DNA from: an uncultured bacterium
Lineage (GTDB): Bacteria; Patescibacteriota; Minisyncoccia; Moranbacterales; GWC2-37-73
Direction: 5' to 3'
DNA length: 64,000 nt
Assembly: GCA_903885965.1 (NCBI GenBank)
Contig: CAISKQ010000035.1
Coordinates: forward strand, 3,926-67,925
The translations under genes were made by a program, and so were the position numbers. Of this stretch, positions 3,934-60,611 are shown in pieces (position 1 is the first letter of the stretch; each line of letters opens with the position of its first letter). The notes under the pieces were generated by a model. It worked only from the letters and a program-made list of their open reading frames with translations, did no database searches and was not told where the DNA came from.

Positions 3934-4962
3934 ATGTTAAAAGAAAAAATTGTTAAAATCAAAGAAGAGGCACGGGTTGCAGTTGAAAACGCCAAAACTG
4001 TGGAAGATGTTTTGCAGCTCGAGATTCAGTTCTTGGGACGCAAAAGCGAGTTTGTGGGAATTTTAAGGCAACTTAAAGATGTTTCAGCGCAGGAAAAAAA
4101 AGAGGTTGGGCAACTGGCCAATTCTGTTAAGGTTGAAATTCAAAATCTGCTAGATCAAAAGAAAAAAAATCTCGCTTCAACTTTTGACGCAAAGGCGGAG
4201 AAAATTGACGTCACTGTTCCAGCCATCAAACTGCGCCAGGGACATCTCCATCCCTTGACTCAAATTCAAAATGAAATTGAAGACATTTTCACTTCGATGG
4301 GTTTTGAAATTGCCGATGGACCGGAAGTGGAAACAGAGTTCTATAATTTTGATGCTTTGAATATGCCTAAGGATCATCCAGCGCGTGATATGCAAGATAC
4401 CTTTTGGTTAAAAGCGGAAGCAGGAAAAGAAAAAATCGCACTTCGTCCAATGACTTCAGCAGTTCAAGTTCGTTATATGGAAAAACACCAACCGCCTTTT
4501 CGGATTATTGCGCCTGGAAGATGTTTTAGGAATGAAGCCACTGATACAACTCACGAGCATTCATTTAATCAATTCGAAGCTTTAGTCGTTGGTGATGATA
4601 TTAATGTTGGGAATATGAAATATATGGCCGAACAATTTTTTTCAGCTTTTTTCAAGCAAGAAGTTAAAGTTAGGTTGCGACCAAGTTATTTTCCATTCAC
4701 GGAACCAAGTTTTGAATTTGATATAAGTTGTTTAGTTTGTGGGCATAAAGGCTGTTCTTCTTGTCGAGGAGCTGGCTGGATAGAACTTGGTGGGGCTGGC
4801 ATGGTAAATCAAAATGTTTTTGTTGCTTCCGGTTATCCAAGAGGGAAATACCAAGGTTTTGCCTGGGGATTTGGACTTGAACGCTTGGCAATGATGAAAT
4901 ACAAAATTGACGACATTCGTCATTTTCACAGCGGCGATTTGAGGTTTATTAAACAATTCTAA
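3934..4962 (+). CDS. pheS: Phenylalanine--tRNA ligase alpha subunit
   Basis: Class II aaRS motifs including 'FNFDALNMPKDHPARDMQDTFW' and 'GFGLERLAMM'. Confidence 0.95.
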   Translation: MLKEKIVKIKEEARVAVENAKTVEDVLQLEIQFLGRKSEFVGILRQLKDVSAQEKKEVGQLANSVKVEIQNLLDQKKKNLASTFDAKAEKIDVTVPAIKLRQGHLHPLTQIQNEIEDIFTSMGFEIADGPEVETEFYNFDALNMPKDHPARDMQDTFWLKAEAGKEKIALRPMTSAVQVRYMEKHQPPFRIIAPGRCFRNEATDTTHEHSFNQFEALVVGDDINVGNMKYMAEQFFSAFFKQEVKVRLRPSYFPFTEPSFEFDISCLVCGHKGCSSCRGAGWIELGGAGMVNQNVFVASGYPRGKYQGFAWGFGLERLAMMKYKIDDIRHFHSGDLRFIKQF

Positions 4963-4969
4963 AAGACCC

Positions 4970-5036
4970 TACGAAAATACAAAATAAATACAAAAGTACA
5001 AAAAGTTTCTCATCGCATTTATTTCGTATTTTCGTA
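4970..5036 (+). repeat. Long intercistronic stem-loop between pheS and pheT (22 bp inverted repeat, 2 mismatches, 23 nt loop) built from TACGAA/TTCGTA units
   Basis: 4970-4991 pairs with 5015-5036. Checked base by base. Confidence 0.6.
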
Positions 5037-5041
5037 TTTTT

Positions 5042-5072
5042 GCCTGCCTCGACGGTAGGCGGGTAAAATTTT
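5042..5072 (+). terminator. Hairpin GCCTGCC-tcgac-GGTAGGC followed by TTTTGTAA; possible attenuator or partial terminator between pheS and pheT
   Basis: 7 bp stem with one G-U pair. The same stem sequence plus 'TTTTGTAA' recurs at 20583-20620. Confidence 0.35.
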
Positions 5073-5115
5073 GTAATTATGTAGGTGCTAAAGTAAATTT
5101 GTAATTTGTAGAACT

Positions 5116-7533
5116 ATGAAATATTCTTACAGTTGGCTAAAAGAAATATCAGGAACAAAATTATCACCAGAAGAATTAATCCAGGGTATCACAATGCATG
5201 CGCTTGAAATTGAAGGCGTGGAAAAAGTTGGCTCAGATTTTGAAGGTGTGGTGGTGGGAGAAATCTTGGAAATATCCAAGCATCCAAATGCTGATAAACT
5301 GCAACTTACCAAAGTCAATATCGGAGACAAAGTCTTGGATATTGTTTGTGGTGCCAAAAATATTTCAGTGGGAGAAAAGGTTCCTGTGGCGCAGATTGGT
5401 TCAGTTCTGCCAGGTGATTTCAAGATCAAAGAAGCTGAAATCCGGGGTGTCAAATCCTTTGGTATGCTTTGCGCCCCAGATGAACTGGGGCTCGGCAGTG
5501 ATCATAGCGGTATTTTACTTTTGGAAAAATCTTTGAAAATTGGAACACCTCTAAGTGCATTGTTTGATGAGAAAGATCAAATTTTGGAAATTAAAGTATT
5601 GCCCGATAGGGCTCATGATGCAGTTAGTCACGTTGGGCTTGCTCGCGAAGTTGCTGCGCTTGATGGAGATATTATTGAATATGATTATGACGGCTTGAAA
5701 CTTGCGAAAAAGAAAACCTCGAGCATCACGGTTTCTATTGAAAATAAAGATTTGTGCGAGCGATATATTGCCGCAAAATTGGATAATGTAACCATTAAGC
5801 AATCTCCACAATGGATTTCAACTCGCTTGGAGAGGTGTGGAATCAGGTCAATCAACAATGTGGTTGATGTGACAAACTATGTAATGCTAGAACTTGGTCA
5901 ACCGATGCATGCATTTGATTTTGCACAAATTTCAAGCGGTGAAGTGGCGGAGATAATCATCAGGAATGCGAAAAAGGATGAAGAAATCGTGATTTTGGAT
6001 GGCAGTGTGAAAAAAATGTCCAGTGATGATGTTGTCATAGCAAACAAAACAGACGTGCTTGCGCTGGCTGGTGTTATGGGTGGCAAAAAAAGTGGAGTTA
6101 GCGAAAAAACCACGAGTATTATGCTTGAGTCAGCAACTTTCAATCCAACCTCTATTCGTAAAACAAAAAATAAGTTCACGCTCCAGACAGACGCTGCTAT
6201 GCGCTTTGAAAAAGGACTTGATCCTAATATTGCGGAAAAAGCGATGGTGCGAGCAATTGAGCTTTTAACCCACATTACTGACGCTAAACTGGCTGGAATT
6301 GTTGATGAGTATCCAACCGTTAAAAAAACTTGGACGATTAAACTTGATTTAAAATACGTAAATTCATTGCTCGGAGAAGAGATTCCTGCAAGTGTTAGCA
6401 AAAAAATTCTCACTTCGCTTGGCTGCGAGGTAAAAAACTCTGGAAAAGACTTGATAGTAACAGTTCCAACCTTTAGGCTTGATTTGCTCACGCAGGAAGA
6501 CTTGATTGAAGAAATCGGCAGAGTTTATGGTTATGAGAAAATTGTTGCAACGCCGCAAATGGTTTCCATAAAACCTCCTGTAGCTAGTGAAAAAAGAACT
6601 TTTGTCAGGAGCGTTAAAAATGTCCTGGTTGGGCTTGGATTTTCAGAAGTATACAACTATGCCTTTTATGGACGCAAAGACGCTGAGGCAGCAAAATTAC
6701 AAACATTCAAGCACTTAGAACTCGAACTCCCAATGAATTGCGAGCAGTCTATCTTGCGCGTGAGCTTGATCCCGAATTTACTGAAAAATGTACGGGAAAA
6801 CTTGAAACACACAAAGGAGATGCATATTTTTGAAATCGGAAAAGTTTTTCTGCCAAATGATGCCAAAGCTTTGCCAGCTGAAAAAAATATGCTCTGCGGC
6901 ATCGTGGTGCTTGAAAAGAAAGCAAACAAGAAAGGTGCTCAAGAAGATTTACAGCAAACTTTGTTTTTTTCGGCCAAATCCCTGGTAAACAATTTAATGA
7001 TACAGTTTGGCATAACAGATCAATATTACGCAGCCATGGAAGATGGCTTTGCACAAATTTCAAAAACTTTTTGCCATGAAGGTCGTGCCAGTGAGATTAA
7101 AATTGACGGAAGTGACCAAGCAATTGGTTGCATTGCAGAAATAAACCCGTTAGTTTTGGCTGATTTTGACGTCAGCGGCAGGGTGGCATTTTTCGAATTT
7201 GACCTTGAATTACTGCAAAACATTTCCAATGCTCAATGTGAGTTCAAATCAATTCCAAAATACCCGAATGTTATGAGGGATATTGCGATGATTGTCTCAG
7301 GAGGCCAGAGAGTGGATGATATTTTGGCTGTTATTCAAGCAGAAGGTGGAGATTTGATTGTGGATGCCGATTTGTTCGATATTTTTGATTTTGCCGACGG
7401 GACCTCGAATTATGCGTTTCATATCATGCTAAATGCTGAAAATAGGACGCTAACAAGCGAAGAAGTCGACATTATTATGAAAAAAATAGCTTCTAAATTG
7501 GAGGAAAAACTGGAAATTAAAATCAGAAAGTAG
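5116..7533 (+). CDS. pheT: Phenylalanine--tRNA ligase beta subunit
   Basis: 805 aa. N-terminal tRNA-binding domain 'KVNIGDKVLDIVCGA', B3/4 and B5 regions, and a C-terminal FDX-ACB-like domain. Immediately downstream of pheS. Confidence 0.95.
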   Translation: MKYSYSWLKEISGTKLSPEELIQGITMHALEIEGVEKVGSDFEGVVVGEILEISKHPNADKLQLTKVNIGDKVLDIVCGAKNISVGEKVPVAQIGSVLPGDFKIKEAEIRGVKSFGMLCAPDELGLGSDHSGILLLEKSLKIGTPLSALFDEKDQILEIKVLPDRAHDAVSHVGLAREVAALDGDIIEYDYDGLKLAKKKTSSITVSIENKDLCERYIAAKLDNVTIKQSPQWISTRLERCGIRSINNVVDVTNYVMLELGQPMHAFDFAQISSGEVAEIIIRNAKKDEEIVILDGSVKKMSSDDVVIANKTDVLALAGVMGGKKSGVSEKTTSIMLESATFNPTSIRKTKNKFTLQTDAAMRFEKGLDPNIAEKAMVRAIELLTHITDAKLAGIVDEYPTVKKTWTIKLDLKYVNSLLGEEIPASVSKKILTSLGCEVKNSGKDLIVTVPTFRLDLLTQEDLIEEIGRVYGYEKIVATPQMVSIKPPVASEKRTFVRSVKNVLVGLGFSEVYNYAFYGRKDAEAAKLQTFKHLELELPMNCEQSILRVSLIPNLLKNVRENLKHTKEMHIFEIGKVFLPNDAKALPAEKNMLCGIVVLEKKANKKGAQEDLQQTLFFSAKSLVNNLMIQFGITDQYYAAMEDGFAQISKTFCHEGRASEIKIDGSDQAIGCIAEINPLVLADFDVSGRVAFFEFDLELLQNISNAQCEFKSIPKYPNVMRDIAMIVSGGQRVDDILAVIQAEGGDLIVDADLFDIFDFADGTSNYAFHIMLNAENRTLTSEEVDIIMKKIASKLEEKLEIKIRK

Positions 7534-8839: not shown

Positions 8840-10120
8840 ATGGATATTATTTCAAGCTCACTGAATGAAATTATTGCGTCCACAAAAATGGCAGGGCAAG
8901 TTTTCGGTTATGTGTGGTTTTTTATCTTACCCCCAGTTTTCTATTTCTTGTTTAAAACTCTTTGGATGTATCATGTTCAAGAAGCTTTTTGGGCCTCAGC
9001 TAGCTGGGTAGTTTTAGAAATAATTCCTCCCAAAAATATTGAAAAAAGCCCGAAACCCATGGAATCTCTTTTTGTGGGTTTTGCTGGTGTAGAAAAAAGC
9101 TTTAACACGCTTGAGGAATTTGTCGAAGGTGGATTTCCGGATTACATGAGTTTTGAGATGGTCAGCGATCAAGGTTCGGTGCATTTTTATGTGCGCTCGA
9201 TGAAAAAATATCGTCATCTAATTGAGGCTCATCTTTATGCTCAATATCCTGACGTGGAAATCGTTGAAGTGCCAGATTATGTTGATAATGTACCTAAGCT
9301 TGTTCCTAATTCTCAATGGGACCTTTGGGGTACTGACATAGCAATGACAAGAGATCATGATGCTTACCCGATTCGAACCTATCCAAGTTATGAAGAATCA
9401 GTAAGTGGGACCATGATTGATCCTTTGGCAGGATTAATTGAAGTTATGGGAAAGCTTGGGCCAGGTCAACACAGTTGGCTACAATGGGTAATTTCACCAG
9501 CTTCTCCAAAATGGAATAGCACGGTCGGAAAAATGCTCGTAGAAAGGCTCAAGGGAAAAGAAAAAAAGAAGGTAGGTATTTTAGATACGATGTGGAAAGA
9601 TTTATTAGAAGTTTTTGGTAGCATATTTAAATATCTCAGCGCACCCGTTGAATTTGAAGGTGAGAAGAAAAAGGATGAGCAGCCACTGGACACACGTCTA
9701 TCTCCAATGGAAAGAGATGTGCTCAAAGCTGTTGAAACAAATTTGGGAAAAATTCAATTTTCTACCAAAGGCAGATTTATTTATCTTGGCAGACGTGAGA
9801 ATTATGACAAATCACTCGGCGTCTCCGCTTTTTGGGGAGCTTTAAAACAATTCGGCGACGATAATTTGAATGGTTTCAAGCCAGATGGAGATTCTAAAAC
9901 TTTTGCAAATTATATTTTTAAAGTTTCACGTTTGAGATATCGGCAACGAAAACTTTTCCGCAGATATAAGAACAGAAGTAGGGATGGGGTCACAACAGTA
10001 TTAAGCAGTGAGGAACTGGCTACAATATATCACTTGCCAGATATGAATGTTATGGCTCCATCAATTTCACGAGTTGAAGCAAAGCGTGGTGGCGCACCTT
10101 CAAATTTGCCAATTGAATAA
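8840..10120 (+). CDS. Membrane protein (N-terminal TM helices) of unknown function, immediately upstream of the TraD/TrwB-like ATPase
   Basis: Hydrophobic N-terminal segments 'VFGYVWFFILPPVFYFLF' and 'SWVVLEIIPP'. Soluble remainder with no recognised domain. Confidence 0.45.
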   Translation: MDIISSSLNEIIASTKMAGQVFGYVWFFILPPVFYFLFKTLWMYHVQEAFWASASWVVLEIIPPKNIEKSPKPMESLFVGFAGVEKSFNTLEEFVEGGFPDYMSFEMVSDQGSVHFYVRSMKKYRHLIEAHLYAQYPDVEIVEVPDYVDNVPKLVPNSQWDLWGTDIAMTRDHDAYPIRTYPSYEESVSGTMIDPLAGLIEVMGKLGPGQHSWLQWVISPASPKWNSTVGKMLVERLKGKEKKKVGILDTMWKDLLEVFGSIFKYLSAPVEFEGEKKKDEQPLDTRLSPMERDVLKAVETNLGKIQFSTKGRFIYLGRRENYDKSLGVSAFWGALKQFGDDNLNGFKPDGDSKTFANYIFKVSRLRYRQRKLFRRYKNRSRDGVTTVLSSEELATIYHLPDMNVMAPSISRVEAKRGGAPSNLPIE

Positions 10121-10135
10121 GCTAGCTGCTAGCTT
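10119..10135. repeat. Perfect palindrome AAGCTAGC-T-GCTAGCTT overlapping the stop codon of the membrane-protein gene; further TAGCT repeats follow
   Basis: Seen directly in the sequence. The short palindrome is unlikely to be an RNA hairpin (1 nt centre), so a protein-binding site is more plausible. Confidence 0.3.
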
Positions 10136-10201
10136 CATTAGCTGTTAGCTTTTAGGAAGTAAAATAATTTTTTTCAATAATTTCTAAACGACAACGATCG
10201 T

Positions 10202-12238
10202 ATGAATAATAGTGAAATTGCTTTTTTTGCAAAAACTAATTTTCGAAATCAAGAGAGGGTCTTCGGAATCAAAACCGACGATAGACGAAGGCATATGTAT
10301 ATCATCGGAAAAACCGGTATGGGAAAAACTAACCTGCTGGAAAATTTGGTGGTGCAAGACATTCGCAATGGGCATGGAATTTGTTATATCGATCCTCATG
10401 GTGACACAGCCGAGAAACTGCTCAAAGCAATTCCGACGAACAGAATAAATGATGTTATCTATTTAAATCCTTCCGATCAAAATTTTCCACTGGCTTTCAA
10501 TGTTATGGAATCAGTTGATCCAGATTACAGGCATCTTGTCTCATCTGGACTTATTGGGGTTTTCAAGAAGATTTGGGCCGATTCATGGGGACCTCGTTTG
10601 GAATATATCCTGCGAAATGCAATCTTGGCACTTTTGGAATATCCAGGCAGCACATTGCTCGGAGTGACTCGAATCTTGGTGGATAAAAAATATCGAGAAA
10701 GAGTAGTTGATAAAGTTACTGACCCAGTAATCAGACAATTTTGGGTGGATGAATTCCCGAAATGGAGCGACAAAGTTTTGCAAGAAGTCGTCTCGCCGAT
10801 CCAAAACAAAGTCGGTCAATTTCTTTCAAGTTCACTCATTCGAAACATCGTTGGTCAAACTCAGTCATCTTTTGATATTCGAGATATTATGGATTCTCGG
10901 AAGATCCTTATTTTAAACTTGTCCAAGGGGCGTATCGGAGAAGACAACAGTGCGCTTTTGGGGGCTATGATGATCACGAAAATTCAGCTAGCTGCCATGG
11001 GTCGCGTTGACATTGAAGAAGACACCCGAAATGATTTTTATCTTTATGTGGATGAGTTTCAAAACTTTGCTACAGAGTCATTCGCAAACATCTTATCGGA
11101 AGCTCGAAAATATCATCTTAATTTGATTTTAGCAAATCAATATATTACCCAGATTGATGAAAAAGTTCGCGATGCCATCTTTGGTAATGCCGGAACAATA
11201 GTTTCTTTTCGCGTTGGCGCAATGGATGCAGAATTTTTGGAAAAGGAATTCGAACCAGTTTTCATGCAAAATGATATTGTCAATTTGCCGAAATATAACG
11301 TGTATCTGAAATTGATGATTGATGGTATTGCAGGGGATGCATTTTCTGCAAAAGTTTTACCGCCGGTACGTATTGAAGATACAATAGAAAATGAGCAGAA
11401 AATAATTGCTGCCTCAAGAGAAAAATATGCCTCAAGCAAAGATGAAGTTGAGGATAAAATCTCAAGATGGTCAGGGATTATGCCAGCAGCTGGCTTTCAG
11501 ACTGTTAATAAGCCACCCGTGGCTTCATATGGCCCGAACCCAGTCATTATTCAGCAACAGCAGCGCCCTCAGCAGGCTTATGCGTCTCAAACTCAACCAG
11601 GGTCAAATCCAAGGCCCATGGCGCAACCAGTGTTTAATTCTGCCCCTGTCAGGCCTCAGCAGGCCACTGTCGCCCAGAAGGCGCCCTTAGTCAATCAGCC
11701 ACAGCAATTTCAACAAGCTCCGGCACCCGTGACTAAACCTCAAGTGCAACCCATTGAGGAAAATCAAGATTATTACGTTAAACCGATTGACACCCGGCCT
11801 AGGTTTGATGCTATTTGTGATATGTGCAATGATCATATTCAAGTGCCATTTCAACCAGACGGATCGCGTCCAACTTTTTGCAAAGATTGTTTAAAGGAAT
11901 ATCAGCGCATGACTGCCAAAGAAAAACTTATGCAGGAACAAAAAATGCAGCGACAACACGAAGATAAACAAGGGGATGAATATCAGCAACAACCAGCTGC
12001 GCAGCCAAGCAGGATTCCTCGACAGGAGGTTCCACGGGTAACGCCGCAACCCACTAGCGAACCTGCTCAAAAAAATGTGCAGCAAAAAACCTATGCGCCG
12101 CAAGAAAGACCTATGTCACTTTCGCAGATGCAATATATTGCTCCAAAAAAATTCAACTCGCAGCGTCAACGGCCGAATGTAAATTTGGATGAAGTTCGCA
12201 GTTTGATAAATTCTTCACAGCAAAGAAGGGAAGAATAG
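10202..12238 (+). CDS. TraD/TrwB/VirD4-like (type IV secretion coupling-protein family) P-loop ATPase with a Q/P-rich C-terminal region and a terminal CxxC...CxxC zinc-ribbon-like motif
   Basis: Walker A 'IIGKTGMGKT' followed by 'YIDPHGD', and a DExx-like 'LYVDEF'. Residues ~430-600 are low-complexity Q/P-rich. The C-terminal 'CDMCNDH...FCKDCL' is zinc-ribbon-like. Confidence 0.6.
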   Translation: MNNSEIAFFAKTNFRNQERVFGIKTDDRRRHMYIIGKTGMGKTNLLENLVVQDIRNGHGICYIDPHGDTAEKLLKAIPTNRINDVIYLNPSDQNFPLAFNVMESVDPDYRHLVSSGLIGVFKKIWADSWGPRLEYILRNAILALLEYPGSTLLGVTRILVDKKYRERVVDKVTDPVIRQFWVDEFPKWSDKVLQEVVSPIQNKVGQFLSSSLIRNIVGQTQSSFDIRDIMDSRKILILNLSKGRIGEDNSALLGAMMITKIQLAAMGRVDIEEDTRNDFYLYVDEFQNFATESFANILSEARKYHLNLILANQYITQIDEKVRDAIFGNAGTIVSFRVGAMDAEFLEKEFEPVFMQNDIVNLPKYNVYLKLMIDGIAGDAFSAKVLPPVRIEDTIENEQKIIAASREKYASSKDEVEDKISRWSGIMPAAGFQTVNKPPVASYGPNPVIIQQQQRPQQAYASQTQPGSNPRPMAQPVFNSAPVRPQQATVAQKAPLVNQPQQFQQAPAPVTKPQVQPIEENQDYYVKPIDTRPRFDAICDMCNDHIQVPFQPDGSRPTFCKDCLKEYQRMTAKEKLMQEQKMQRQHEDKQGDEYQQQPAAQPSRIPRQEVPRVTPQPTSEPAQKNVQQKTYAPQERPMSLSQMQYIAPKKFNSQRQRPNVNLDEVRSLINSSQQRREE

Positions 12239-46413: not shown

Positions 46414-47094
46414 TTATTTTTTTAAAATGTTTTCTAAATATGTTTTGACTTCTAGTTGCTGCTCGAAGCTGTTTTCCATTTCAATGCTGATGTATTCTGG
46501 CAAATATTGCAGAAATTTTTCAATATAGTCCACTTCATCCATACTTATCAGATAATGAGAACCTGCTTTTTTTAAAAAACGAAACAAGGTGTTCTTAAGT
46601 TTTGGCAGGGGTGAAACATGACAGCATCCGATTGCAAATGCCTTAGCGCATTTTTCTGTTTTTTCTGCCACACTAGGCCTGAACTTTTTAGCCAGTTGCC
46701 AATGTTGAAAGTCTAAGCACATTCCAGCAACCTCATTTAGTTGATTTTCCGGAATTGCTCTATGTGGATGATTTTCAATATATACTTTATTGTTATATTT
46801 ATCCAAGAGCTCGATGTGACGTTCACCCATGTGAATATTATAAACCTGTGCTTTGTGCTTTTCAAACCACTGCATTTCCCATTCTTCCATATCCTCACCT
46901 CTCAAATGTACATGCGGAATAATCAGTCCTTCTATTTCATCAAGCATGGCATATAATTTTCTGCGTTGTGTAATTTTTAGAAAAGTCGGAAAAAGCGCAA
47001 TCCGAGTAATTCCAAATTTTTTCATTTCTTCAACTTTCGCATGCCAGTCAGACCCTGGCGTTGTCGTTAGCCCTAAGAGAATTTCATGTTTCAT
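46414..47094 (-). CDS. Hypothetical protein
   Basis: 226 aa intact ORF overlapping rmlB by 4 nt; no domain recognised. Confidence 0.4.
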   Translation of the reverse strand: MKHEILLGLTTTPGSDWHAKVEEMKKFGITRIALFPTFLKITQRRKLYAMLDEIEGLIIPHVHLRGEDMEEWEMQWFEKHKAQVYNIHMGERHIELLDKYNNKVYIENHPHRAIPENQLNEVAGMCLDFQHWQLAKKFRPSVAEKTEKCAKAFAIGCCHVSPLPKLKNTLFRFLKKAGSHYLISMDEVDYIEKFLQYLPEYISIEMENSFEQQLEVKTYLENILKK

Positions 47095-50353: not shown

Positions 50354-51427
50354 TTATAGTTCACCTTGCAGCAATTGATTAAGTCTTTTCTTTAGTTCCT
50401 CGGTAGTTGGTTCGTGAATTTTCTCTTTTGGAGTAGCATCATTTTCGAGCGCCTCAGCGCTTGGGCTTGGCGTCTCAGCATTTGATAGGCCAGTCTCCAT
50501 TGAAAAATCAGCAATTGGAAGATTATCCGGAGCAGCCGATTTTACCTGGCTATGAATTGGCATCTCTGGAAAATTTGGATATACCCCACGATTTGCTATT
50601 TCTTGCAAATGCACGATTTCCTCTGCTGCCACATTTTCCTGATGGGAAACAGTTTTGGTCAATACTTGATCAGCTACAGGCAAATCATTTTCAGTATAAG
50701 CACTTTGATTGTGCTCTTCTTCTTTGTACAAATTTTCTAAAGCCTCAATTGGCATTGGTTGATTGTTTTTTCTCGAAAAACTAAGATCTCGTAGTGGATT
50801 GTTCTTGTTAAGCATGTCTTGAAAATCAGTAGCTTTTTTTCTAATTATGGAAATTTGCCCAAGTGCTGCCGAAATTAAGCTTCCCAAAATAATACTAACT
50901 AATAGCATCAATGGCCATCCAACCACAACAACTCTTGTGATTGGTCCATCAATTATCCTCAAATCAACGTCTTCCTTAACATTGTAATATAAGCTTGTAG
51001 TGTCAAAAAGTGTCCGCACCGTCTTTGAAGCAATAAGATTTGAACTCGCCTCATTTTCACTGGACGCTGAAACTAAAATAGCAGAACTACCGCTGTCTGA
51101 TTGCTCAACTGAAAGCATACTATTCCAGATTTTTTTTCGCTGATCGGAATTTTTCCCGGAGGTAACATCTTTGATTGAATGATTTTCTCTCAACATTTTA
51201 TCATAGAATGAAAGCAGTCTTGGCAGTTGAATAAGGTTATTTAAAATCTGATTTTGCTGATTGATTGCATTTGCAGATTTTGCAATGACTAAAATAGTTA
51301 CCTCGCTTTGATATACCTTAAACTTTTCTACGCCAAGCAAGAAGAATGTCACACTCAAAACAACTGCCAAGACAACGGCCTGAAAGGAGAAGTGAATTTT
51401 TTTGAGTAGTTCTTTCATTATTTTCAT
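50354..51427 (-). CDS. Wzz-like (polysaccharide chain-length-determinant-like) bitopic membrane protein
   Basis: N-terminal TM, large extracytoplasmic segment, second TM with 'GWPLMLLVSIILGSLISAALG', C-terminal tail. The assignment rests on topology only. Confidence 0.35.
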   Translation of the reverse strand: MKIMKELLKKIHFSFQAVVLAVVLSVTFFLLGVEKFKVYQSEVTILVIAKSANAINQQNQILNNLIQLPRLLSFYDKMLRENHSIKDVTSGKNSDQRKKIWNSMLSVEQSDSGSSAILVSASSENEASSNLIASKTVRTLFDTTSLYYNVKEDVDLRIIDGPITRVVVVGWPLMLLVSIILGSLISAALGQISIIRKKATDFQDMLNKNNPLRDLSFSRKNNQPMPIEALENLYKEEEHNQSAYTENDLPVADQVLTKTVSHQENVAAEEIVHLQEIANRGVYPNFPEMPIHSQVKSAAPDNLPIADFSMETGLSNAETPSPSAEALENDATPKEKIHEPTTEELKKRLNQLLQGEL

Positions 51428-54927: not shown

Positions 54928-56373
54928 TTAAGCTATTTTTTCTCCATATAATCTTCGTAGCACTGCCAAATTTATCCAGAAAAATATTCCCAGCAGGTTG
55001 GCTTCCAAATATGGTTGAAACATGAAAGCCACAAATTGAAAGACTAAGATACCAAGACTCGCATATGCCGCAATTTGAAAAGTCTCATCTTTGAAACTAT
55101 ATTTAAAGACATTCCAACTCAAAAACACTAAGATTGTCAGGATCATTGAAAGTCCAAAAATACCCATCTGTACAAGTAGTACCAAAAATGAATTATGAAT
55201 ATTGCGAACCTCAACAAAATCCCGATAAGACCCAATCTCTACCGACACACTTTGACCAAAACCAATTCCGAGAACTGGGCTTTCTGCATATTTTTTGATA
55301 GCTGACTGCCATACTGCTCCTCTCCAAAAGATGCTTTCGTCACCGTTAGTGTTGGTAATTGATGTTACTCGTTTGCTAAGCATATTTGCTCCGCTACTAA
55401 GATTTTCATAAAAAGAAGATCGAGGAAACAAAAGCACCACGTACGTCACGATGATGGCAAGGATAATGAGAATTACGCCATACGAATATGCATAACGTTT
55501 CAGTTTCTCTTTTTGCGTTGATCCAAAAAGCACAATTACGCCAATGACTGAAACAAGTAAGCTAATCCAGAGATGTCTCATCATGGAGCCAATAATGCCG
55601 ATTGTCCAGATTGGCATCAGCACCAGCAGCCATCTTGAGAATGTGTCCTTCTTATGCGCAAGATAAATAAGCGCCAAGATAAGTGTCATTGAGAGATAGA
55701 ATCCATGCGTAAAGGCAAGCGTTCTGATTCCATCGGTAGAAAGTGGCGTAAAATCTGACCAAAGACCGTGCCTGACCGCTATGCCATAGACCACAAACCA
55801 AATTATTGCGATTGCTCCAGCAAAAATTGCACTGCCAAGTTCAACTAGGCGCTGCCTTGAATCAATTAAGATGAACACCACAAAATACAGCAATGAGTAA
55901 AAGGCATAATTTTTTGCACTACTGAAAGCCAGGGAAATATTCCCACTACTAAATAGAAGATTTCCAACAAAGTATGCCATCGAAAGAAAAATAAACAGCC
56001 CGGCAACAATATCAATCTTTTTCCAAACAATTTTTAGGTTGCCAGTAGCTATTTGAAAAATCATCCCAGCTATCACCCCGCAAAAAAGTACATCAATTGG
56101 ATAAAGCTTATATTCACTTCTTCCCATCGCAACGGGAACCAATGTGTAAAATCTTTCAAAAACGAAGGTCAAAAATATCATCGCATATAGCCCTGCTCGC
56201 GGATAAGCCAAAGCAACACCTGCCCCAACCAACATAGTAATCACATAGAGTGGCAAATTGAACCCGAAAAAATAATTCACGATTGCAAAAAGTGAAGAAA
56301 ACGCAACAACAAATATCGCGTAAATTATGTCTAGTGGAATTTTGTCAGTTAAGTGATTTTTCATATAGGTCAT
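54928..56373 (-). CDS. O-antigen ligase / Wzy-like polymerase family membrane protein
   Basis: At least 10 predicted TM helices with a central periplasmic loop, typical of the WaaL/Wzy family. Confidence 0.6.
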   Translation of the reverse strand: MTYMKNHLTDKIPLDIIYAIFVVAFSSLFAIVNYFFGFNLPLYVITMLVGAGVALAYPRAGLYAMIFLTFVFERFYTLVPVAMGRSEYKLYPIDVLFCGVIAGMIFQIATGNLKIVWKKIDIVAGLFIFLSMAYFVGNLLFSSGNISLAFSSAKNYAFYSLLYFVVFILIDSRQRLVELGSAIFAGAIAIIWFVVYGIAVRHGLWSDFTPLSTDGIRTLAFTHGFYLSMTLILALIYLAHKKDTFSRWLLVLMPIWTIGIIGSMMRHLWISLLVSVIGVIVLFGSTQKEKLKRYAYSYGVILIILAIIVTYVVLLFPRSSFYENLSSGANMLSKRVTSITNTNGDESIFWRGAVWQSAIKKYAESPVLGIGFGQSVSVEIGSYRDFVEVRNIHNSFLVLLVQMGIFGLSMILTILVFLSWNVFKYSFKDETFQIAAYASLGILVFQFVAFMFQPYLEANLLGIFFWINLAVLRRLYGEKIA

Positions 56374-56589
56374 ACACTATTAATATATAATTTCTAATTT
56401 TCAATCATATCCCAATGTCAACATTTTAAATTGTTGAACTATTAGAAGCTCATTGCAAATTATTAATCCATTATCAGCTGATAAATGGAAATTTATCAAT
56501 CTGGCAACCCTAGAATTTGAGTCATCTTAGGCATATTTGCCTAAACATAGCAAATATCAGAATATTTGAGATGACCATCAATTATAGCA

Positions 56590-56642
56590 TAGTTTAATAA
56601 AAATGTAAAGCCCCCAAGTCACTAGTGTGATTCGGGGGCTTT
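56590..56642 (-). terminator. Rho-independent terminator after the first island gene (AGCCCCC / GGGGGCT stem + TTTACATTTTTATT on the minus strand)
   Basis: 7 bp GC stem, 18 nt loop, T-rich tail on the minus strand. Confidence 0.5.
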
Positions 56643-56675
56643 GTTGTGGCGATTTACGCCGGGTTAGCAAAGAAC

Positions 56676-57545
56676 TTACTTTTTAGCAGGCGGAACTGAT
56701 GCACTAGACTTAGTATCAATTTTTTTCTCGATACTGTCGAGCTTGTCATGCACCGTTGATCTGCCATCTTTTGGATCACTAAGGGATTTGTGAACTTTCT
56801 TCACAACAAGGTGTGCCTCCTTGACAATCACCAATGTTTTCCTTGCTTTCTGATGCAAGGTTTTTTCATCCGCAGGGTCATCCTCACTTGGACGACCGAT
56901 TGAATTCATAACCTCCTCACAAGGTCCATCCTTCTTGATCACTTTAGGATAATGCGCTGGGACAACCGAATGACGAGAATCTTCAATGTTGGCTCTCTGT
57001 CTCTTTAAATGCACTGCCCGCTCATCGTCGCAATCACTATTGTCAATAGGTGACTCTGGTGAGTCGCCTGTGCCAGTGTAAACAAACATCGCACCACCAG
57101 AATTGGCGATGCTAGATGTTTTAAAACTCATGCCCATTTTAATTTTACCTGCAGTCCTGATTTTGCAATCAGGAACCCCTAGCCAGGCACTGGAGTTTTC
57201 CTCCTTTGTAAAATTAAGGCATGTGGCCCCATTCTGCAAGCCAAACTCATCCAGCTTGAATTTCAAGACGGCGCTATTTGTGCCGTCGGTTACTTCGAAT
57301 GGCATCACTGTTATTATTCGTTGCGCCGTGCTTCTCAGCCTATCCGGGCAATACTGCTGCAAGACAAGCCGGTCAATCGGTGACGAGCAATTCGTTTTGT
57401 CAACCAAAATGGTGACATCCCCGTGTCCTTCAGACGTAACCACCATCTTGTGTAATGTCGGAAATGGCACTGCGAGGGCCGCCGAACTTATCAATGTTAA
57501 TGCAAATAATGCAATCATCGATAATGACTTTGTAGACTTTCTCAT
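56676..57545 (-). CDS. Secreted hypothetical protein (compositional island gene 3 of 3)
   Basis: Signal peptide 'MIALFALTLISSAALA'. Cys-containing and no domain recognised. The local GC content is clearly higher (about 46%) than the window average (about 35%). Confidence 0.4.
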   Translation of the reverse strand: MRKSTKSLSMIALFALTLISSAALAVPFPTLHKMVVTSEGHGDVTILVDKTNCSSPIDRLVLQQYCPDRLRSTAQRIITVMPFEVTDGTNSAVLKFKLDEFGLQNGATCLNFTKEENSSAWLGVPDCKIRTAGKIKMGMSFKTSSIANSGGAMFVYTGTGDSPESPIDNSDCDDERAVHLKRQRANIEDSRHSVVPAHYPKVIKKDGPCEEVMNSIGRPSEDDPADEKTLHQKARKTLVIVKEAHLVVKKVHKSLSDPKDGRSTVHDKLDSIEKKIDTKSSASVPPAKK

Positions 57546-57625
57546 TTTTTCTCTCCTTGTTTTTGTTTAGTGCTTGATTTTTTGTTACAAGCACTAAACG
57601 GTTAACGTTACCTTTCCTTAATTCT

Positions 57626-58807
57626 CTACTCTTGATCAAGTGGCATTTTTGCAATCGTGACCACATCTTCTTTTGCACCAGGCAAAGTCCGATAAGATCC
57701 ATCACTGGATTTTTCAACCTTTAATTCCTCTGATGCAGAAGCAGTTGTGATTCCTCCTTTCCACTTAACTGCTTCTTCTCTTCTGTCAGCGTCAAACTTG
57801 CGAAGGTTGTCACTAACGTTGTAACCAAGACATATTCCGATAAATGGCCCACCAGCTGCAAATATTGAGCTAGCGCTTAAGCTAAAATTTCTATAGCCAA
57901 GAACAATTTGTGGCCCAACCCCGATAATAGGTTTACCATCAGAAATATTAAATGATAATACGCCACCACCCTTACCTAGGAAGTCAGGCGTGAAACGATG
58001 TTCGCCCATCGCTGCAAATGCTAAGTATGAATCCTTTGGAAAATACTGCCCATCAGCAGTAATAATGATTACATCTCGGCTATTCAACGAATGAGTAAAC
58101 TGCAGGTATGCGCCAGGCATAAAGCCACTCCGACTATTGTCAGTTATCCCAAACCGATAGAGCATTCTCATTTTAACAAGAATGTCATCTGATGGAGTGA
58201 AAGCTCGATAATAATCAAGGTTGACTCCTGGGGCAACATATCCCCAATGCCATGTGCCGCCTTTAGTTCCTCCGTAGTCAGTTCGCACCGTTGGACCATA
58301 CCCAAGGTTTTCAGCGTCTTCAAGACGCGTCAACCAATGAGTCATCTCTGAAAGAGTCCAAAAGCCACTAGACCCAGCTCCCATAGCATGCCATGCACCT
58401 GTGTAAACACTGTACTCGTTAAAGGATGCCTTAAACGAGTGATCAGGCCTTTCGGAAGGCGGAATTCCAGCTGGATGCTGGCTAACGATTGCATGTGCTA
58501 ACTCAGCCTCAACCGTTGGCACCCTTAGCTTCTTAACCGCCTCGGGTTGAGCTACAGTTGTTTGAACATTCTGCTCGCGAAATTTTTCTGGCAGAACCTT
58601 TACAGTGGCGGTAGCACATGGAACCTCAGCTTTTCCAAAAGCCGCTTCTCTGCGAGCTTTCAAAATGCGATACGTATACTCCGTATCTGAGTTGACCGTC
58701 CCAACTCCTGAGATGGTCGCCTTATTTTCCCTAGCATTTGCAGGCAAATTGCCAGCACACACCAGGAGCAAAAGCAATGAAATAGTTGTTATCCTGATGT
58801 TTTTCAT
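57626..58807 (-). CDS. Secreted hypothetical protein with amphipathic beta-strand-like C-terminal segments (island gene 2 of 3)
   Basis: Signal peptide 'LLLLLVCAGNLPANA'. Alternating hydrophobic patterns such as 'IIGVGPQIVLGY' and 'FIGICLGYNV'. Overlaps the upstream gene by 4 nt (ATGA). Confidence 0.4.
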   Translation of the reverse strand: MKNIRITTISLLLLLVCAGNLPANARENKATISGVGTVNSDTEYTYRILKARREAAFGKAEVPCATATVKVLPEKFREQNVQTTVAQPEAVKKLRVPTVEAELAHAIVSQHPAGIPPSERPDHSFKASFNEYSVYTGAWHAMGAGSSGFWTLSEMTHWLTRLEDAENLGYGPTVRTDYGGTKGGTWHWGYVAPGVNLDYYRAFTPSDDILVKMRMLYRFGITDNSRSGFMPGAYLQFTHSLNSRDVIIITADGQYFPKDSYLAFAAMGEHRFTPDFLGKGGGVLSFNISDGKPIIGVGPQIVLGYRNFSLSASSIFAAGGPFIGICLGYNVSDNLRKFDADRREEAVKWKGGITTASASEELKVEKSSDGSYRTLPGAKEDVVTIAKMPLDQE

Positions 58808-59715
58808 TTTTCTCCTTGTTTTCTTGATTGTTGTGCAATAACATTTTCTTCATTGAGTTGACGAATCACTTCGAGACGAAGTGCGCCAGTAAAACCACTA
58901 ATCTCACCCATCATGGCGCGATTAGGAATTTCTGAAAGATAATCCCACCCCTGAGATTTTGAAAAACCACCCTCAAGAATTGCCATGCCGATGCTCCAAA
59001 GAGTTGCCGGACTAGCACTAATTGTGATGTTGTTCTTCAGAATAATTTTGCCAAGCAAACCATAGCCGGGATTAATCCTAGCGATACGCTTGATAAAATC
59101 ATCACCGTAGGGCGTGAGGATGTCACCCTCATCTGTCCCGCACGGATGCCACTTGAGAATGCTATTCGCGAAACCAATCAGTTGCCTGCGGCTTCCAACT
59201 CGGCTGCCGTATTGCGCAATGATTTCGTTTTGATATTGCTCATCATTCTTAAACTTGGCAGTATCAATTTGAAAACATCCCCCTTCCAAGTTTCCAACAT
59301 AACCTCCAACGGATGAGAGGAATATAACCTTAGCATCCTTGACAATTTTTTTGTCGCCTTCAACTATGATGGCAAACATATACTCACCGGTTTTGTACAT
59401 CCCAATGAGCACAAACTGTGCGAAGATTTTTTGTCCATTTGGAAGCATCGCCAAACCGTTCCAGCGCAATCTTCCCGGATACATTTCGGCATTGACGCAC
59501 CGATCCGCAATTGGACCTTCCACAACTGTCACATTTCCAGAGGAAATATTTTCAGTCGCTTGAACACCAATTGATTGGACTGGTTTGACCAACAAGTCCA
59601 TTGGCTCTCCTTTTGAATTGAGAACACCTTTTACAACCAAGTTCTGCTTAGCCATTCCAGATGCTGGAAGCATCAGGAGGCCTAGCAAAAAGATAAAGAA
59701 AAATGAATTTCTCAT
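58804..59715 (-). CDS. Secreted hypothetical protein (island gene 1 of 3)
   Basis: Signal peptide 'FFFIFLLGLLMLPASGMA'; no domain recognised. Confidence 0.4.
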   Translation of the reverse strand: MRNSFFFIFLLGLLMLPASGMAKQNLVVKGVLNSKGEPMDLLVKPVQSIGVQATENISSGNVTVVEGPIADRCVNAEMYPGRLRWNGLAMLPNGQKIFAQFVLIGMYKTGEYMFAIIVEGDKKIVKDAKVIFLSSVGGYVGNLEGGCFQIDTAKFKNDEQYQNEIIAQYGSRVGSRRQLIGFANSILKWHPCGTDEGDILTPYGDDFIKRIARINPGYGLLGKIILKNNITISASPATLWSIGMAILEGGFSKSQGWDYLSEIPNRAMMGEISGFTGALRLEVIRQLNEENVIAQQSRKQGEK

Positions 59716-59885
59716 CGTATAACTCCCTTAATTTAATCCTAATTAATTTTTCAAGATAACAATTAAACCCAAAACAATTTCGAGTTTATTTGGGAGCTTA
59801 TGCTGTATTACCAGGATAAGCTCCTCGATCTACTCAAAAATTCAAATATATTTAATGCTCGTCTTTTGACAGAAGCAAGACTCCC

Positions 59886-60611
59886 TTAATACTCTTCGTC
59901 ATTCATAAAATTTCCAGATAATTCCATTCGATTCGGTGTAGAATAATTTTTCTGAACTTCCGGCTTGATAGTCAGTGTATTGCTCGAAAAAATATCTTTC
60001 TTTCTTCGGTTTTCTTTTGTCACAATCCAAAGCACACTCAGCATTGCACCCAGAATAAATCCACCAGCTGAAACTGCAAAGATATTTCCGACTGTTGGAT
60101 TCTTTTCAAGCACGGGACCTGAAAGAACCTTCACATCGATACTTTGTCCTTCCCCACGAAACAAACTATTTTTAGTAGTAAGTACTTGCTCCACAGCCTG
60201 TGAAGTAGCTAAAGATGTTTGTTGATTATTATCAAAGACTTCAACGGTTATGATTCCCAAATCTGGATTACGCCTGACTTGAATCATATCACTCCATTGT
60301 TTAAGTTTTTCCTTTTTGTCAAAGGGTAGAAATTCCGAATTGACTTTTCCAGTTTTCACCATCTCATTGATGAAGAGTTCACTGTAAATTCCCTCATTTA
60401 AAATGCGTCCAATATATTCTGCTGATTTTGAAAGGGTATAAAAATCCTGTGATCCGCTTTGATTTTGAACAATTAAATAATCCGAGCTCACCTTAAAACT
60501 TTTCTCCTTTGTTATAAGCGCGAAAAATGAAAGCGCACCTACAAGAAGACCGGCCAAAACAATGGTTCCGGCTTTTTTCTTTATTAAAGCCAATATTTGG
60601 TTATTTTTCAT
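59886..60611 (-). CDS. Wzz-like chain-length-determinant-like bitopic membrane protein (second)
   Basis: N-terminal TM 'IVLAGLLVGALSFFALI', periplasmic segment, C-terminal TM 'GGFILGAMLSVLWIV' then 'KENRRKKD'. Confidence 0.4.
   Translation of the reverse strand: MKNNQILALIKKKAGTIVLAGLLVGALSFFALITKEKSFKVSSDYLIVQNQSGSQDFYTLSKSAEYIGRILNEGIYSELFINEMVKTGKVNSEFLPFDKKEKLKQWSDMIQVRRNPDLGIITVEVFDNNQQTSLATSQAVEQVLTTKNSLFRGEGQSIDVKVLSGPVLEKNPTVGNIFAVSAGGFILGAMLSVLWIVTKENRRKKDIFSSNTLTIKPEVQKNYSTPNRMELSGNFMNDEEY

Follow-up and report, generated by a model that had tools for sequence, protein, structure and literature searches.

The stretch of DNA analysed here, hereafter the window, is 64 kb of contig CAISKQ010000035.1 from an uncultured bacterium of the Moranbacterales. 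Near one end of it lies a cassette of three genes, which we call A, B and C, placed in a fixed slot between a gene for a CpsC-type co-polymerase-like membrane protein (cpsC-like) and a gene for a membrane protein with a Wzy_C domain. Below we show that this cassette is a resident part of its clade rather than an insertion, that the product of its middle gene is predicted to fold as a beta-barrel of the outer-membrane type, and that its relatives carry exchangeable anchor domains. The genes of the slot and its two flanks are as follows.

59886-60611, minus strand: CpsC-type (Gram-positive type) co-polymerase-like membrane protein, TIGR01006; upstream flank, earlier called Wzz-like
58804-59715, minus strand: gene A, 303 amino acids, from the list of open reading frames (ORFs)
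57626-58807, minus strand: gene B, 393 amino acids, from the same list
56676-57545, minus strand: gene C, 289 amino acids, from the same list
54928-56373, minus strand: Wzy_C-domain membrane protein of the O-antigen polymerase/ligase/O-oligosaccharyltransferase superfamily, Pfam PF04932; downstream flank

The three cassette genes are packed closely. A and B overlap by ATGA at 58804-58807, and 80 nt separate B from C. The cassette has strong Shine-Dalgarno sites, with the ribosome-binding context AAAACAAGGAGA common to B and C. Each protein begins with a signal peptide, judged by eye from its n-region, hydrophobic region and small-x-small cleavage site, and we read cleavage as falling between LPASGMA and KQ in A, between LPANA and RE in B, and between SAALA and VPF in C. 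No family was matched when A, B and C were compared with Pfam, NCBIfam, PHROGs and PADLOC, and profile searches of PDB sequences, run for the cpsC-like gene as well as for A, B and C, returned chance matches only. Judged by these comparisons, the cassette comprises three apparently new protein families, and we found no description of the operon in the literature. The initial annotation of this stretch had already recorded three tightly packed minus-strand genes with an ATGA overlap, a signal peptide on each protein and no recognised family, and all of this holds. A 155-amino-acid ORF on the plus strand at 57103-57570, antisense within gene C, is most likely a by-product of the local richness in G and C (GC) and not a gene.

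We compared the window with related loci, which we designate by L numbers. At least 10 genomes have a homologous cassette in this slot, with the cpsC-like gene on one side and the Wzy_C gene on the other. The order cpsC-like, A, B, C, Wzy_C, glycosyltransferase family 4 (GT4) is present in L003, L004, L007, L008, L013, L014 and L015, variants of the cassette fill the slot in L016-L018, L020 and L022, and every related Moranbacteria locus long enough to show the slot has homologues of A, B and C in the same position. We also surveyed metagenomes with a flank gene, not the cassette, as the seed, so as to avoid a choice of loci based on the cassette. This survey gave 24 non-redundant loci with both the cpsC-like and the Wzy_C gene; the slot measured 2.1-4.3 kb (median 3.36 kb) in 22 of them and was short in the other two. 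The short-slot loci, L073 and L080, have a single gene each (251 and 173 amino acids, in slots of 1062 and 750 bp) and may represent minimal or degraded cassettes. When B was used as a single sequence, two relatives were found among 5.8 billion clusters, and its profile recovered 34 representatives among 1.84 billion proteins. The profile of A found 20 clusters among 5.8 billion proteins, all of them from Moranbacteria or Parcubacteria, and that of C found 19 clusters. Wherever the source is named, homologues of A, B and C come only from Candidatus Moranbacteria, Moraniibacteriota or Parcubacteria, and we therefore take the window for a chromosome of the Patescibacteria. A 3.3 kb record with A, B and C (L012, DYDH01000349.1) was deposited as Herpetosiphon sp.; its genes are identical to those of the Moranbacteria-type loci L004-L006, and it is probably a binning error.

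The initial annotation had taken the cassette for a horizontal insertion, and the homologues in the same slot across relatives are the very observation that it had named as speaking against insertion. The window has no tRNA genes, the direct repeats around the slot are short and at chance level, and neither the ORF list nor Pfam revealed an integrase or transposase in the cassette neighbourhood. Measured by what usually defines a genomic island, the cassette thus has the deviating composition, while the locus of its relatives is not without it and marks of mobility are missing. A recently acquired foreign island bringing an adhesin, S-layer or toxin module into an envelope locus would fit three genes that have the highest GC in the window, match no known family and come with their own terminator and upstream hairpin. 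We nonetheless hold it to be most improbable: homologues fill the slot across the clade, every detected homologue of A, B and C is from this clade only, no tRNA, flanking repeat or mobility gene is in place, and the GC deviation is present in nearly all lineages and is therefore not a sign of recent arrival. We conclude that the cassette is resident throughout the clade and is not foreign DNA. The view of it as a secreted or surface module within a cell-envelope locus, on the other hand, is borne out by the signal peptides and the surrounding polysaccharide genes, and the adhesin-, surface-layer- or toxin-like role that was suggested for it is conceivable. Beside the locus, L008/L009 carry three extra genes at 4905-7019, between htrA and the cpsC-like gene: one is an ORF of 160 amino acids, and the others encode a DUF1294 protein and a protein of the GIY-YIG/DNA_alkylation type. 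The neighbourhood of the locus thus does receive small insertions, but the cassette slot itself does not.

Within its slot the cassette diverges much faster than its surroundings. L003, the closest distinct relative, shares 67-77% identity with the window in the flanks, against 59% in A, 47% in B and 34% in C. Between L013 and L014 the flanks are 82% identical, yet A is only 52% and B 42% identical, and between L014 and L007 the flanks are 63% identical, yet A reaches 69% and B 67%. The identities of C follow another pattern, with the C protein of L014 closest to that of L013 (56%). Since cassette and flank identities disagree in this way, cassette alleles or parts of them appear to have been exchanged between lineages across the conserved flanks. 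These comparisons indicate that allele exchange of a resident cassette between related lineages is the part of the horizontal-transfer idea that survives. They also suggest that the L014 cassette is a mosaic, L007-like in A and B and L013-like in C, with a recombination breakpoint between B and C. Fast divergence together with allele exchange would account for the variability of the cassette, as expected for exposed surface components.

The unusual base composition that drew attention to the cassette is likewise a property of its genes. The three genes have 44.3% GC, against 37.1% in the rest of the window, and the most GC-rich 3-kb window of the 64 kb coincides with the cassette (44.5%, ~4 standard deviations above the mean). 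A, B and C take ranks 1-3 in GC among 48 ORFs, with z-scores of 2.3-3.2. The initial annotation was right that the cassette is GC-rich, and its figures of 46% and 35% lie ~2 points too far out on each side; its description of codon and GC usage as unusual agrees with the sliding-window peak on the cassette and with a shift in synonymous usage. In B the excess resides mostly in codon positions 1 and 2, that is in amino-acid composition, and in A and C it extends to position 3 as well. The cassette proteins are enriched in Gly, Ala, Pro, Arg, Thr and Ser and depleted in Lys, Ile, Glu and Gln.

The same pattern recurs across the clade. Cassette GC exceeded flank GC in all eight genomes that we checked gene by gene, by ~2-18 points per gene, and slot GC exceeded flank GC in 22/24 loci of the flank-seeded survey, by 6 points on average and 15 at most. 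Slot GC rises on flank GC with a slope of 0.49, and the excess shrinks and then reverses where the flanks reach ~55% GC; cassette GC is therefore buffered at ~42-55% whatever the GC of the genome. In each of six loci the share of C-ending codons, NNC/(NNC+NNT), was 0.34-0.49 in the cassette and 0.15-0.25 in the flanks, and the share of G-ending codons, NNG/(NNG+NNA), was 0.37-0.56 and 0.23-0.30, respectively. Cassette proteins of the lineages that share the GC excess are 26-59% identical to those of the window. These lineages are far beyond synonymous saturation, and the difference must therefore have been maintained, by selection or by GC-biased gene conversion in a region that recombines, and is not the legacy of a donor. 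GC richness is thus intrinsic to the cassette genes, composed of amino-acid composition and a synonymous shift, and is kept in nearly all lineages. We considered codon usage as proof of high expression and found it not decisive, as both C-ending and G-ending codons rise. Elsewhere in the window, the second most GC-rich stretch (8840-12238, plus strand, 41%) encodes a 426-amino-acid ORF without a family match, followed by a coupling-like protein of the TrwB/VirD4 type. The latter has a treble-clef zinc finger, and the stretch may belong to the monoderm-type type IV secretion system reported for Patescibacteria.

We next turn to the structure of protein B, which was modelled with AlphaFold2 on an alignment of 32 sequences. 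The predicted layout is as follows.

Gene B, minus strand, N-terminal part: signal peptide; beta-beta-alpha module, residues 29-57; disordered linker, residues 58-120
Gene B, minus strand, C-terminal part: 12-stranded barrel, residues 125-332 (nucleotides 57812-58435); helix, residues 333-346; floppy C-terminal tail of ~50-60 residues

The linker is rich in Ala, Pro, Val and Glu. Twelve long antiparallel strands were predicted with a predicted local distance difference test score (pLDDT) above 90, and the five models agree closely (means 71.7-76.2). A Foldseek search of the PDB with the model gave 72 matches at E <= 1e-3; integral outer-membrane barrels account for every one of the top 50, with a probability of 1.00. 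Among the matches are FadL, the autotransporter beta-domains of Hbp, EspP, BrkA, EstA and NalP, FapF, a COG4313 channel, OmpG, NanC, KdgM and LpxR, and the best target-normalised TM-scores, 0.55-0.62, were obtained with the 12-stranded NanC, KdgM and COG4313 barrels. Closure of the modelled strands into a barrel would follow from these matches. The initial annotation had pointed to beta-strand-like segments in the middle protein, and the two peptides that it singled out, IIGVGPQIVLGY and FIGICLGYNV, fall in predicted strands 10 and 12 of B.

The alignment of the B family offers evidence that does not depend on AlphaFold. Averaged over family columns, hydropathy is +0.92 on one face of the strands and -0.97 on the other. 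The hydrophobic face is enriched in aromatic residues and is 0-12% charged in strands 5-12; the polar face is up to 51% charged. At the level of sequence, this alternation fits a membrane barrel. The last strand contains a conserved G-x-x-x-G-Y-x-[FLV]-N and is followed by a tail of 10-60 residues, not by an aromatic chain end. The window's B matched none of the curated outer-membrane-protein families in Pfam and NCBIfam, and one of the 32 B relatives matches Pfam OMP_b-brl at 1.8e-4. We considered that the modelling might have produced a spurious barrel, and that B might be a beta-rich protein that is soluble or bound to the wall, as could be argued from the shallow alignment, the moderate TM-scores and the single, weak Pfam match to an outer-membrane protein within the family. 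This seems to us very unlikely given the pLDDT over all 12 strands in the best model, the close agreement of the five models, the Foldseek probability of 1.00 for dozens of outer-membrane barrels and the conserved two-residue alternation of hydrophobic and polar positions.

The partner proteins A and C are less easily placed. In the A family, 17 of 18 full-length members have the lipobox L-x-G-C. In the window's A the lipobox cysteine is replaced by methionine, SGMA standing where relatives have SGCA (residues 18-24; 59640-59660, minus strand), and on this sequence difference the window's A is probably released or signal-anchored rather than lipid-anchored. The AlphaFold2 model of A has an alpha/beta core (residues 40-215) with pLDDT above 85, an overall pLDDT of 73 and a long C-terminal helix; residues 224-264 form a conserved hydrophobic segment that was not modelled. 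Searches of Pfam with A and 19 relatives matched only the lipoprotein attachment site, with neither the Poly_export (PES) nor the SLBB domain found, and the model of A showed no structural match to Wza or GfcC. C has a conserved N-terminal domain of ~145 residues (28-172; nucleotides 57030-57464) with invariant Cys127 and Cys172, followed by a variable, charged, low-complexity C-terminal region. Near the C terminus, 15 of the 19 C-family members carry CxxCH, which the window's C and three others lack. In full the motif reads C-x-[KAS]-C-H-[NH], often with a Trp a few residues later, and it resembles a haem c or metal site; the phylum is not known for cytochromes. Family members were found in L003 (11131-12111), L004 (2567-3697), L008 (10199-11341), L015 (8144-9064), L020 (9251-10204) and L022 (6784-8241).

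An N-terminal LysM domain is present on B in five of the 32 aligned members, in longer B' forms (L016, L017) and in L020. Across the clade, the slot occurs in four versions.

Window: A, B and C
L016-L018 and many survey loci: A, a LysM-bearing B' (480-580 amino acids) and a small protein with only the C domain (130-210 amino acids)
L020: LysM-B and C, without A
L022: a barrel-only B and a lipoprotein in which the C domain is combined with a peptidoglycan-binding OmpA_C domain and CxxCH

Comparison of these versions therefore divides the module into a constant part, the barrel and the C domain, and a variable part, the anchors, which may be a lipid, LysM or OmpA_C. The domain content of these relatives makes it evident that the module is anchored to the cell wall or membrane. 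L020 by itself had led us to consider that LysM on B replaces A, an idea that we rejected since L016-L018 carry both A and LysM-B'.

Signals at both ends of the cassette set it apart as a transcription unit.

59845-59872, minus strand: candidate cassette promoter, CTGTCA-16-TATATT, 9/12 consensus positions; a weak site with a presumed role
59778-59839, minus strand: leader stem-loop upstream of gene A, ~62 nt, folding z = -3.3
56590-56642, minus strand: intrinsic terminator closing the A-B-C unit, -30.7 kcal/mol, z = -5.6
56581-56609, minus strand: promoter-like site, strong, ahead of the Wzy_C gene, TTTACA-17-TATAAT extended by TG (TGcTATAAT), 11/12 consensus positions

A transcript from the candidate promoter would start at the 5' foot of the leader stem-loop, which is conserved: its consensus over five diverged lineages has 24 pairs, eight of them with compensatory changes on both sides, and equivalents lie in L003 (8864-9008), L008 (7864-8000), L015 (5854-6000) and L020 (7812-8000). 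The inner stem of this element, with perfect 9-bp arms at 59793-59824, is the upstream hairpin noted in the initial annotation, and the conserved sequence GATAAACTCGAAATTGGTTCGGGTTTG follows the stem-loop. The element may stabilise the mRNA at its 5' terminus, serve in regulation or act as an unusual terminator for the cpsC-like gene. At the other end, the terminator that had been proposed for the cassette is supported by folding. Its stem (56607-56642) is followed by the U-rich tail UUUACAUUUUUAUU, and its interior exceeds the 3-8 nt loop limit of the pattern scan, so that it was recovered by folding. All eight related loci have an equivalent GC-rich hairpin 3' of gene C. Rfam searches of the leader and the terminator region matched no family. 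The promoter-like site of the Wzy_C gene is the best in the region and overlaps the terminator tail, and the motif CTTTACATTTT...GTGCTATAAT after the terminator recurs in L003, L008 and L015 and, partially, in L007 and L022. Cassette terminator and following promoter thus make up a single compact element that is conserved.

The flanking genes place the cassette in a polysaccharide locus. The Wzy_C protein matches PF04932 at 3.1e-14, its 53.5 bits passing the gathering cut-off of 31.7. The cpsC-like gene, which adjoins the cassette in every locus examined, matches TIGR01006 (polys_exp_MPA1) at 1.8e-5 over residues 5-200, with 24 bits against a curated cut-off of 296. All 11 of its orthologues match the same model over nearly their full length (best 2.7e-9, below the cut-off), two hydrophobic segments are visible in the protein sequence, and Pfam, including Wzz, gave no match. 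Of the flank identities first assigned, that of Wzy_C is supported above the Pfam cut-off, and the Wzz-like gene is putatively of the CpsC type, by a match that is weak and found in 11/11 orthologues. Downstream of the Wzy_C gene lie GT4 glycosyltransferases, a beta-helix protein, DUF4012 and RmlABCD, and TagA/WecG is also encoded in the surroundings; together these genes form a rhamnose-type surface-polysaccharide locus. Two ORFs of this locus, 50354-51427 (minus strand, 357 amino acids) and 46414-47094 (minus strand, 226 amino acids), have no Pfam match. The first matches the cpsC-like profile very weakly (8e-5) and may be a second, divergent co-polymerase-type protein. The remainder of the window is ordinary chromosome, with genes for aminoacyl-tRNA synthetases, DnaJ, RecJ, ClpB and HtrA. 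In L003 (3261-5875; GCA_041736215.1), clpB appears as two overlapping ORFs of 448 and 429 amino acids, by a frameshift or an assembly error in this metagenome-assembled genome.

Several described systems resemble the cassette in part. Inverse autotransporters (type Ve: intimin, invasin and YeeJ) have the same order of parts as several relatives of B, namely signal peptide, LysM, linker, 12-stranded barrel and C-terminal extension (PMC4943183, PMC5595812), and the best structural matches of B include beta-domains of classical autotransporters. Unlike inverse autotransporters, however, neither B nor any of 32 family members matches the IAT_beta (invasin/intimin) family of Pfam, intimin and invasin barrels are outside the top 50 structural matches, the C-terminal 'passenger' of B has ~60 residues without Big, lectin or Ig-like domains, LysM is missing from the window's B, two dedicated partner genes accompany B, and the host is a presumed monoderm. 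OmpM/SlpA and OmpA/Pal tethers likewise join a barrel to a wall-binding module, either in the same chain or through a partner lipoprotein: OmpM combines S-layer homology (SLH) and barrel domains, OmpA a barrel and OmpA_C, and Pal is the partner lipoprotein (10.1101/2021.05.31.446380). Their equivalents in cassette relatives would be LysM-B and the lipoprotein with the C domain and OmpA_C. In contrast to OmpM, no member of the B family has an SLH match, and LysM takes that position in some relatives; in contrast to OmpA, with its eight strands, B has 12, and its wall modules vary by lineage and are absent from the window copies. Such tethers moreover define diderms, whereas Candidate Phyla Radiation (CPR) bacteria are scored as monoderms.

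FapF, which recurs among the top structural matches of B, resembles it in having a helical module at the N terminus, then a long disordered linker and a barrel of 12 strands; its target-normalised TM-scores are 0.44-0.51. FapF is, however, an outer-membrane protein of Proteobacteria, B has no sequence relationship to it, and there are no amyloid subunit genes nearby. The composite outer-membrane polysaccharide export (OPX)/barrel translocons of Wzx/Wzy pathways in Myxococcus and others also place a lipoprotein and a barrel beside co-polymerase and Wzy genes (PMC9601211, PMC9603273, PMC12819527). They differ from the cassette in that A lacks PES/SLBB, the barrel has 12 and not 16-18 strands, there is an additional protein C, and the cassette is its own transcription unit. 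In its genetics the cassette is reminiscent of the variable central regions of O-antigen and capsule loci, with conserved flanks, a hypervariable centre, allele exchange and a differing base composition; unlike these, it encodes exported proteins and not glycosyltransferases, and its GC lies above that of the flanks, not below. By its model and sequence, B is predicted to work like a wall-tethered outer-membrane barrel while being a member of no described family.

Taking together the residency and synteny of the cassette, its operon signals and compositional pattern, the predicted fold of B and the anchor variants of relatives, we lean, by a little over an even chance, towards a resident clade-specific operon that makes a wall-tethered surface complex centred on a beta-barrel, from a fixed slot in the polysaccharide locus of Candidatus Moranbacteria. 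On this proposal the exported proteins A (of a lipoprotein family), B (a barrel with a small N-terminal module and a flexible linker of ~60 residues) and C (a secreted domain protein) would assemble at the cell surface into a complex around the barrel. The complex would be tethered by whichever anchor the lineage possesses, the lipid of A, LysM fused to B or OmpA_C on C. The barrel would be held to the wall through its linker and these anchors and would sit in a hydrophobic outer layer, and the complex may act together with the glycan that the neighbouring genes produce for the surface, or in cell contact. The narrower claim that Moranbacteria, regarded as monoderms, make a peptidoglycan-tethered, single-chain barrel of the outer-membrane type with two dedicated partner proteins is one that we put forward tentatively, as possible though doubtful.

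A number of observations weigh against the proposed surface complex. All of the evidence is computational, the barrel model was built from only 32 sequences, and its TM-scores to solved barrels are moderate (~0.45-0.62). Outer-membrane biogenesis genes, including those of the beta-barrel assembly machinery (BAM)/Omp85, were not seen in the 64 kb window, and Patescibacteria have been proposed to lack an outer membrane (PMC12102498), so that the membrane of the barrel is a presumed one. The model of A found no structural analogue in the PDB or among the viral structures of BFVD. The rise of both C- and G-ending codons does not discriminate selection for expression from GC-biased gene conversion. 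Finally, the window copies are stripped, with A lacking the lipobox cysteine, B lacking LysM and C lacking CxxCH and OmpA_C, and the argument for anchoring therefore rests on the relatives.

We weighed several other functions for the three proteins. They could be abundant S-layer-like glycoproteins whose linkers, rich in Ser, Thr, Ala and Pro, are decorated by the Wzy_C protein acting as an O-oligosaccharyltransferase, a possibility that is compatible with a barrel complex and to which we give a modest chance. In the S-layer glycosylation (slg) clusters of Gram-positive bacteria, an S-layer gene stands beside rml, glycosyltransferase and WsaB genes, and the cassette similarly lies among RmlABCD, GT4, TagA/WecG and Wzy_C. 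The long, disordered, low-complexity linker of B and the low-complexity tail of C would suit glycosylation of this kind, as would signs of abundant synthesis (a candidate promoter and a terminator of its own, Shine-Dalgarno sites that are strong, a 5' stem-loop such as those by which abundant mRNAs are stabilised, and an approximate doubling of NNC codon use in most lineages) and a divergence as fast as that of surface antigens. A protein lattice would not explain the lipid-facing pattern of B, however, Pfam revealed no SLH or other known S-layer domain, and the rise in NNG codons is no classical mark of high expression. By analogy with the composite OPX/beta-barrel translocons described in diderms (PMC9601211, PMC9603273, PMC12819527), A, B and C might instead form a terminal device for export or anchoring of the locus polysaccharide. 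In such translocons the polymer passes from the co-polymerase to a lipoprotein and on to a barrel. The cassette is indeed fixed between the co-polymerase-like and Wzy_C genes in all loci, it pairs a lipoprotein with a beta-barrel, and the closest 12-stranded matches of B include the oligosaccharide channels NanC, KdgM and VhGalP. We regard this as unlikely, in that A has neither Poly_export/SLBB nor a structural match to Wza or GfcC, the cassette is transcribed separately from the biosynthesis genes and a monoderm needs no outer translocon; the known partner barrels of such systems are also larger, with 16-18 strands.

A barrel with a hydrophobic belt in an organism with no known outer membrane (PMC12102498) raises the further idea that the cell delivers B as a pore to a host bacterium's membrane, which would give this presumed episymbiont a channel or grip, with A and C serving attachment. 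CPR bacteria are widely inferred to be epibionts (PMC12102498), the long flexible linker could span the gap between cells, and very fast divergence with allele swapping is seen in host-interaction and arms-race loci. We find this distinctly unlikely: no toxin or secretion-system signature accompanies the cassette, single-chain barrels normally need insertion of the BAM type, LysM and OmpA_C as anchors suggest attachment to the wall of the producer itself, and placement in a polysaccharide locus would be left unexplained. The C-x-x-C-H near the C terminus of 15/19 C-family proteins, and the constant pairing of C with an adjacent barrel gene, could also be read as a small porin-cytochrome-like conduit made of B and C for extracellular electron transfer or metal handling. 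That seems scarcely probable when the window's C and three other members lack CxxCH, the motif is single where it occurs, and a haem domain would not fit into the narrow lumen of a 12-stranded barrel. The window showed no genes for cytochrome c maturation, which are not expected in CPR bacteria.

How bacteria of the CPR, or Patescibacteria, build their envelope and attach to hosts is largely unknown, and their assignment as monoderms underlies scenarios of outer-membrane loss in the Terrabacteria. A barrel of the outer-membrane type would not be expected in bacteria that are held to lack an outer membrane, and a conserved operon in which such a barrel is combined with peptidoglycan anchors that can replace one another offers a concrete and testable way into the question of the CPR envelope. 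As the most variable surface locus of its clade, the cassette may serve as a strain or serotype marker and is a candidate for determining which phages or hosts are recognised. It also carries a warning, since a sharp step in GC here marks resident genes with a maintained composition and not foreign DNA. If the barrel truly sits in lipid, these bacteria would have either an unrecognised outer lipid layer, as a diderm remnant or a re-invention, or a barrel that is planted in the membrane of the host for episymbiosis.

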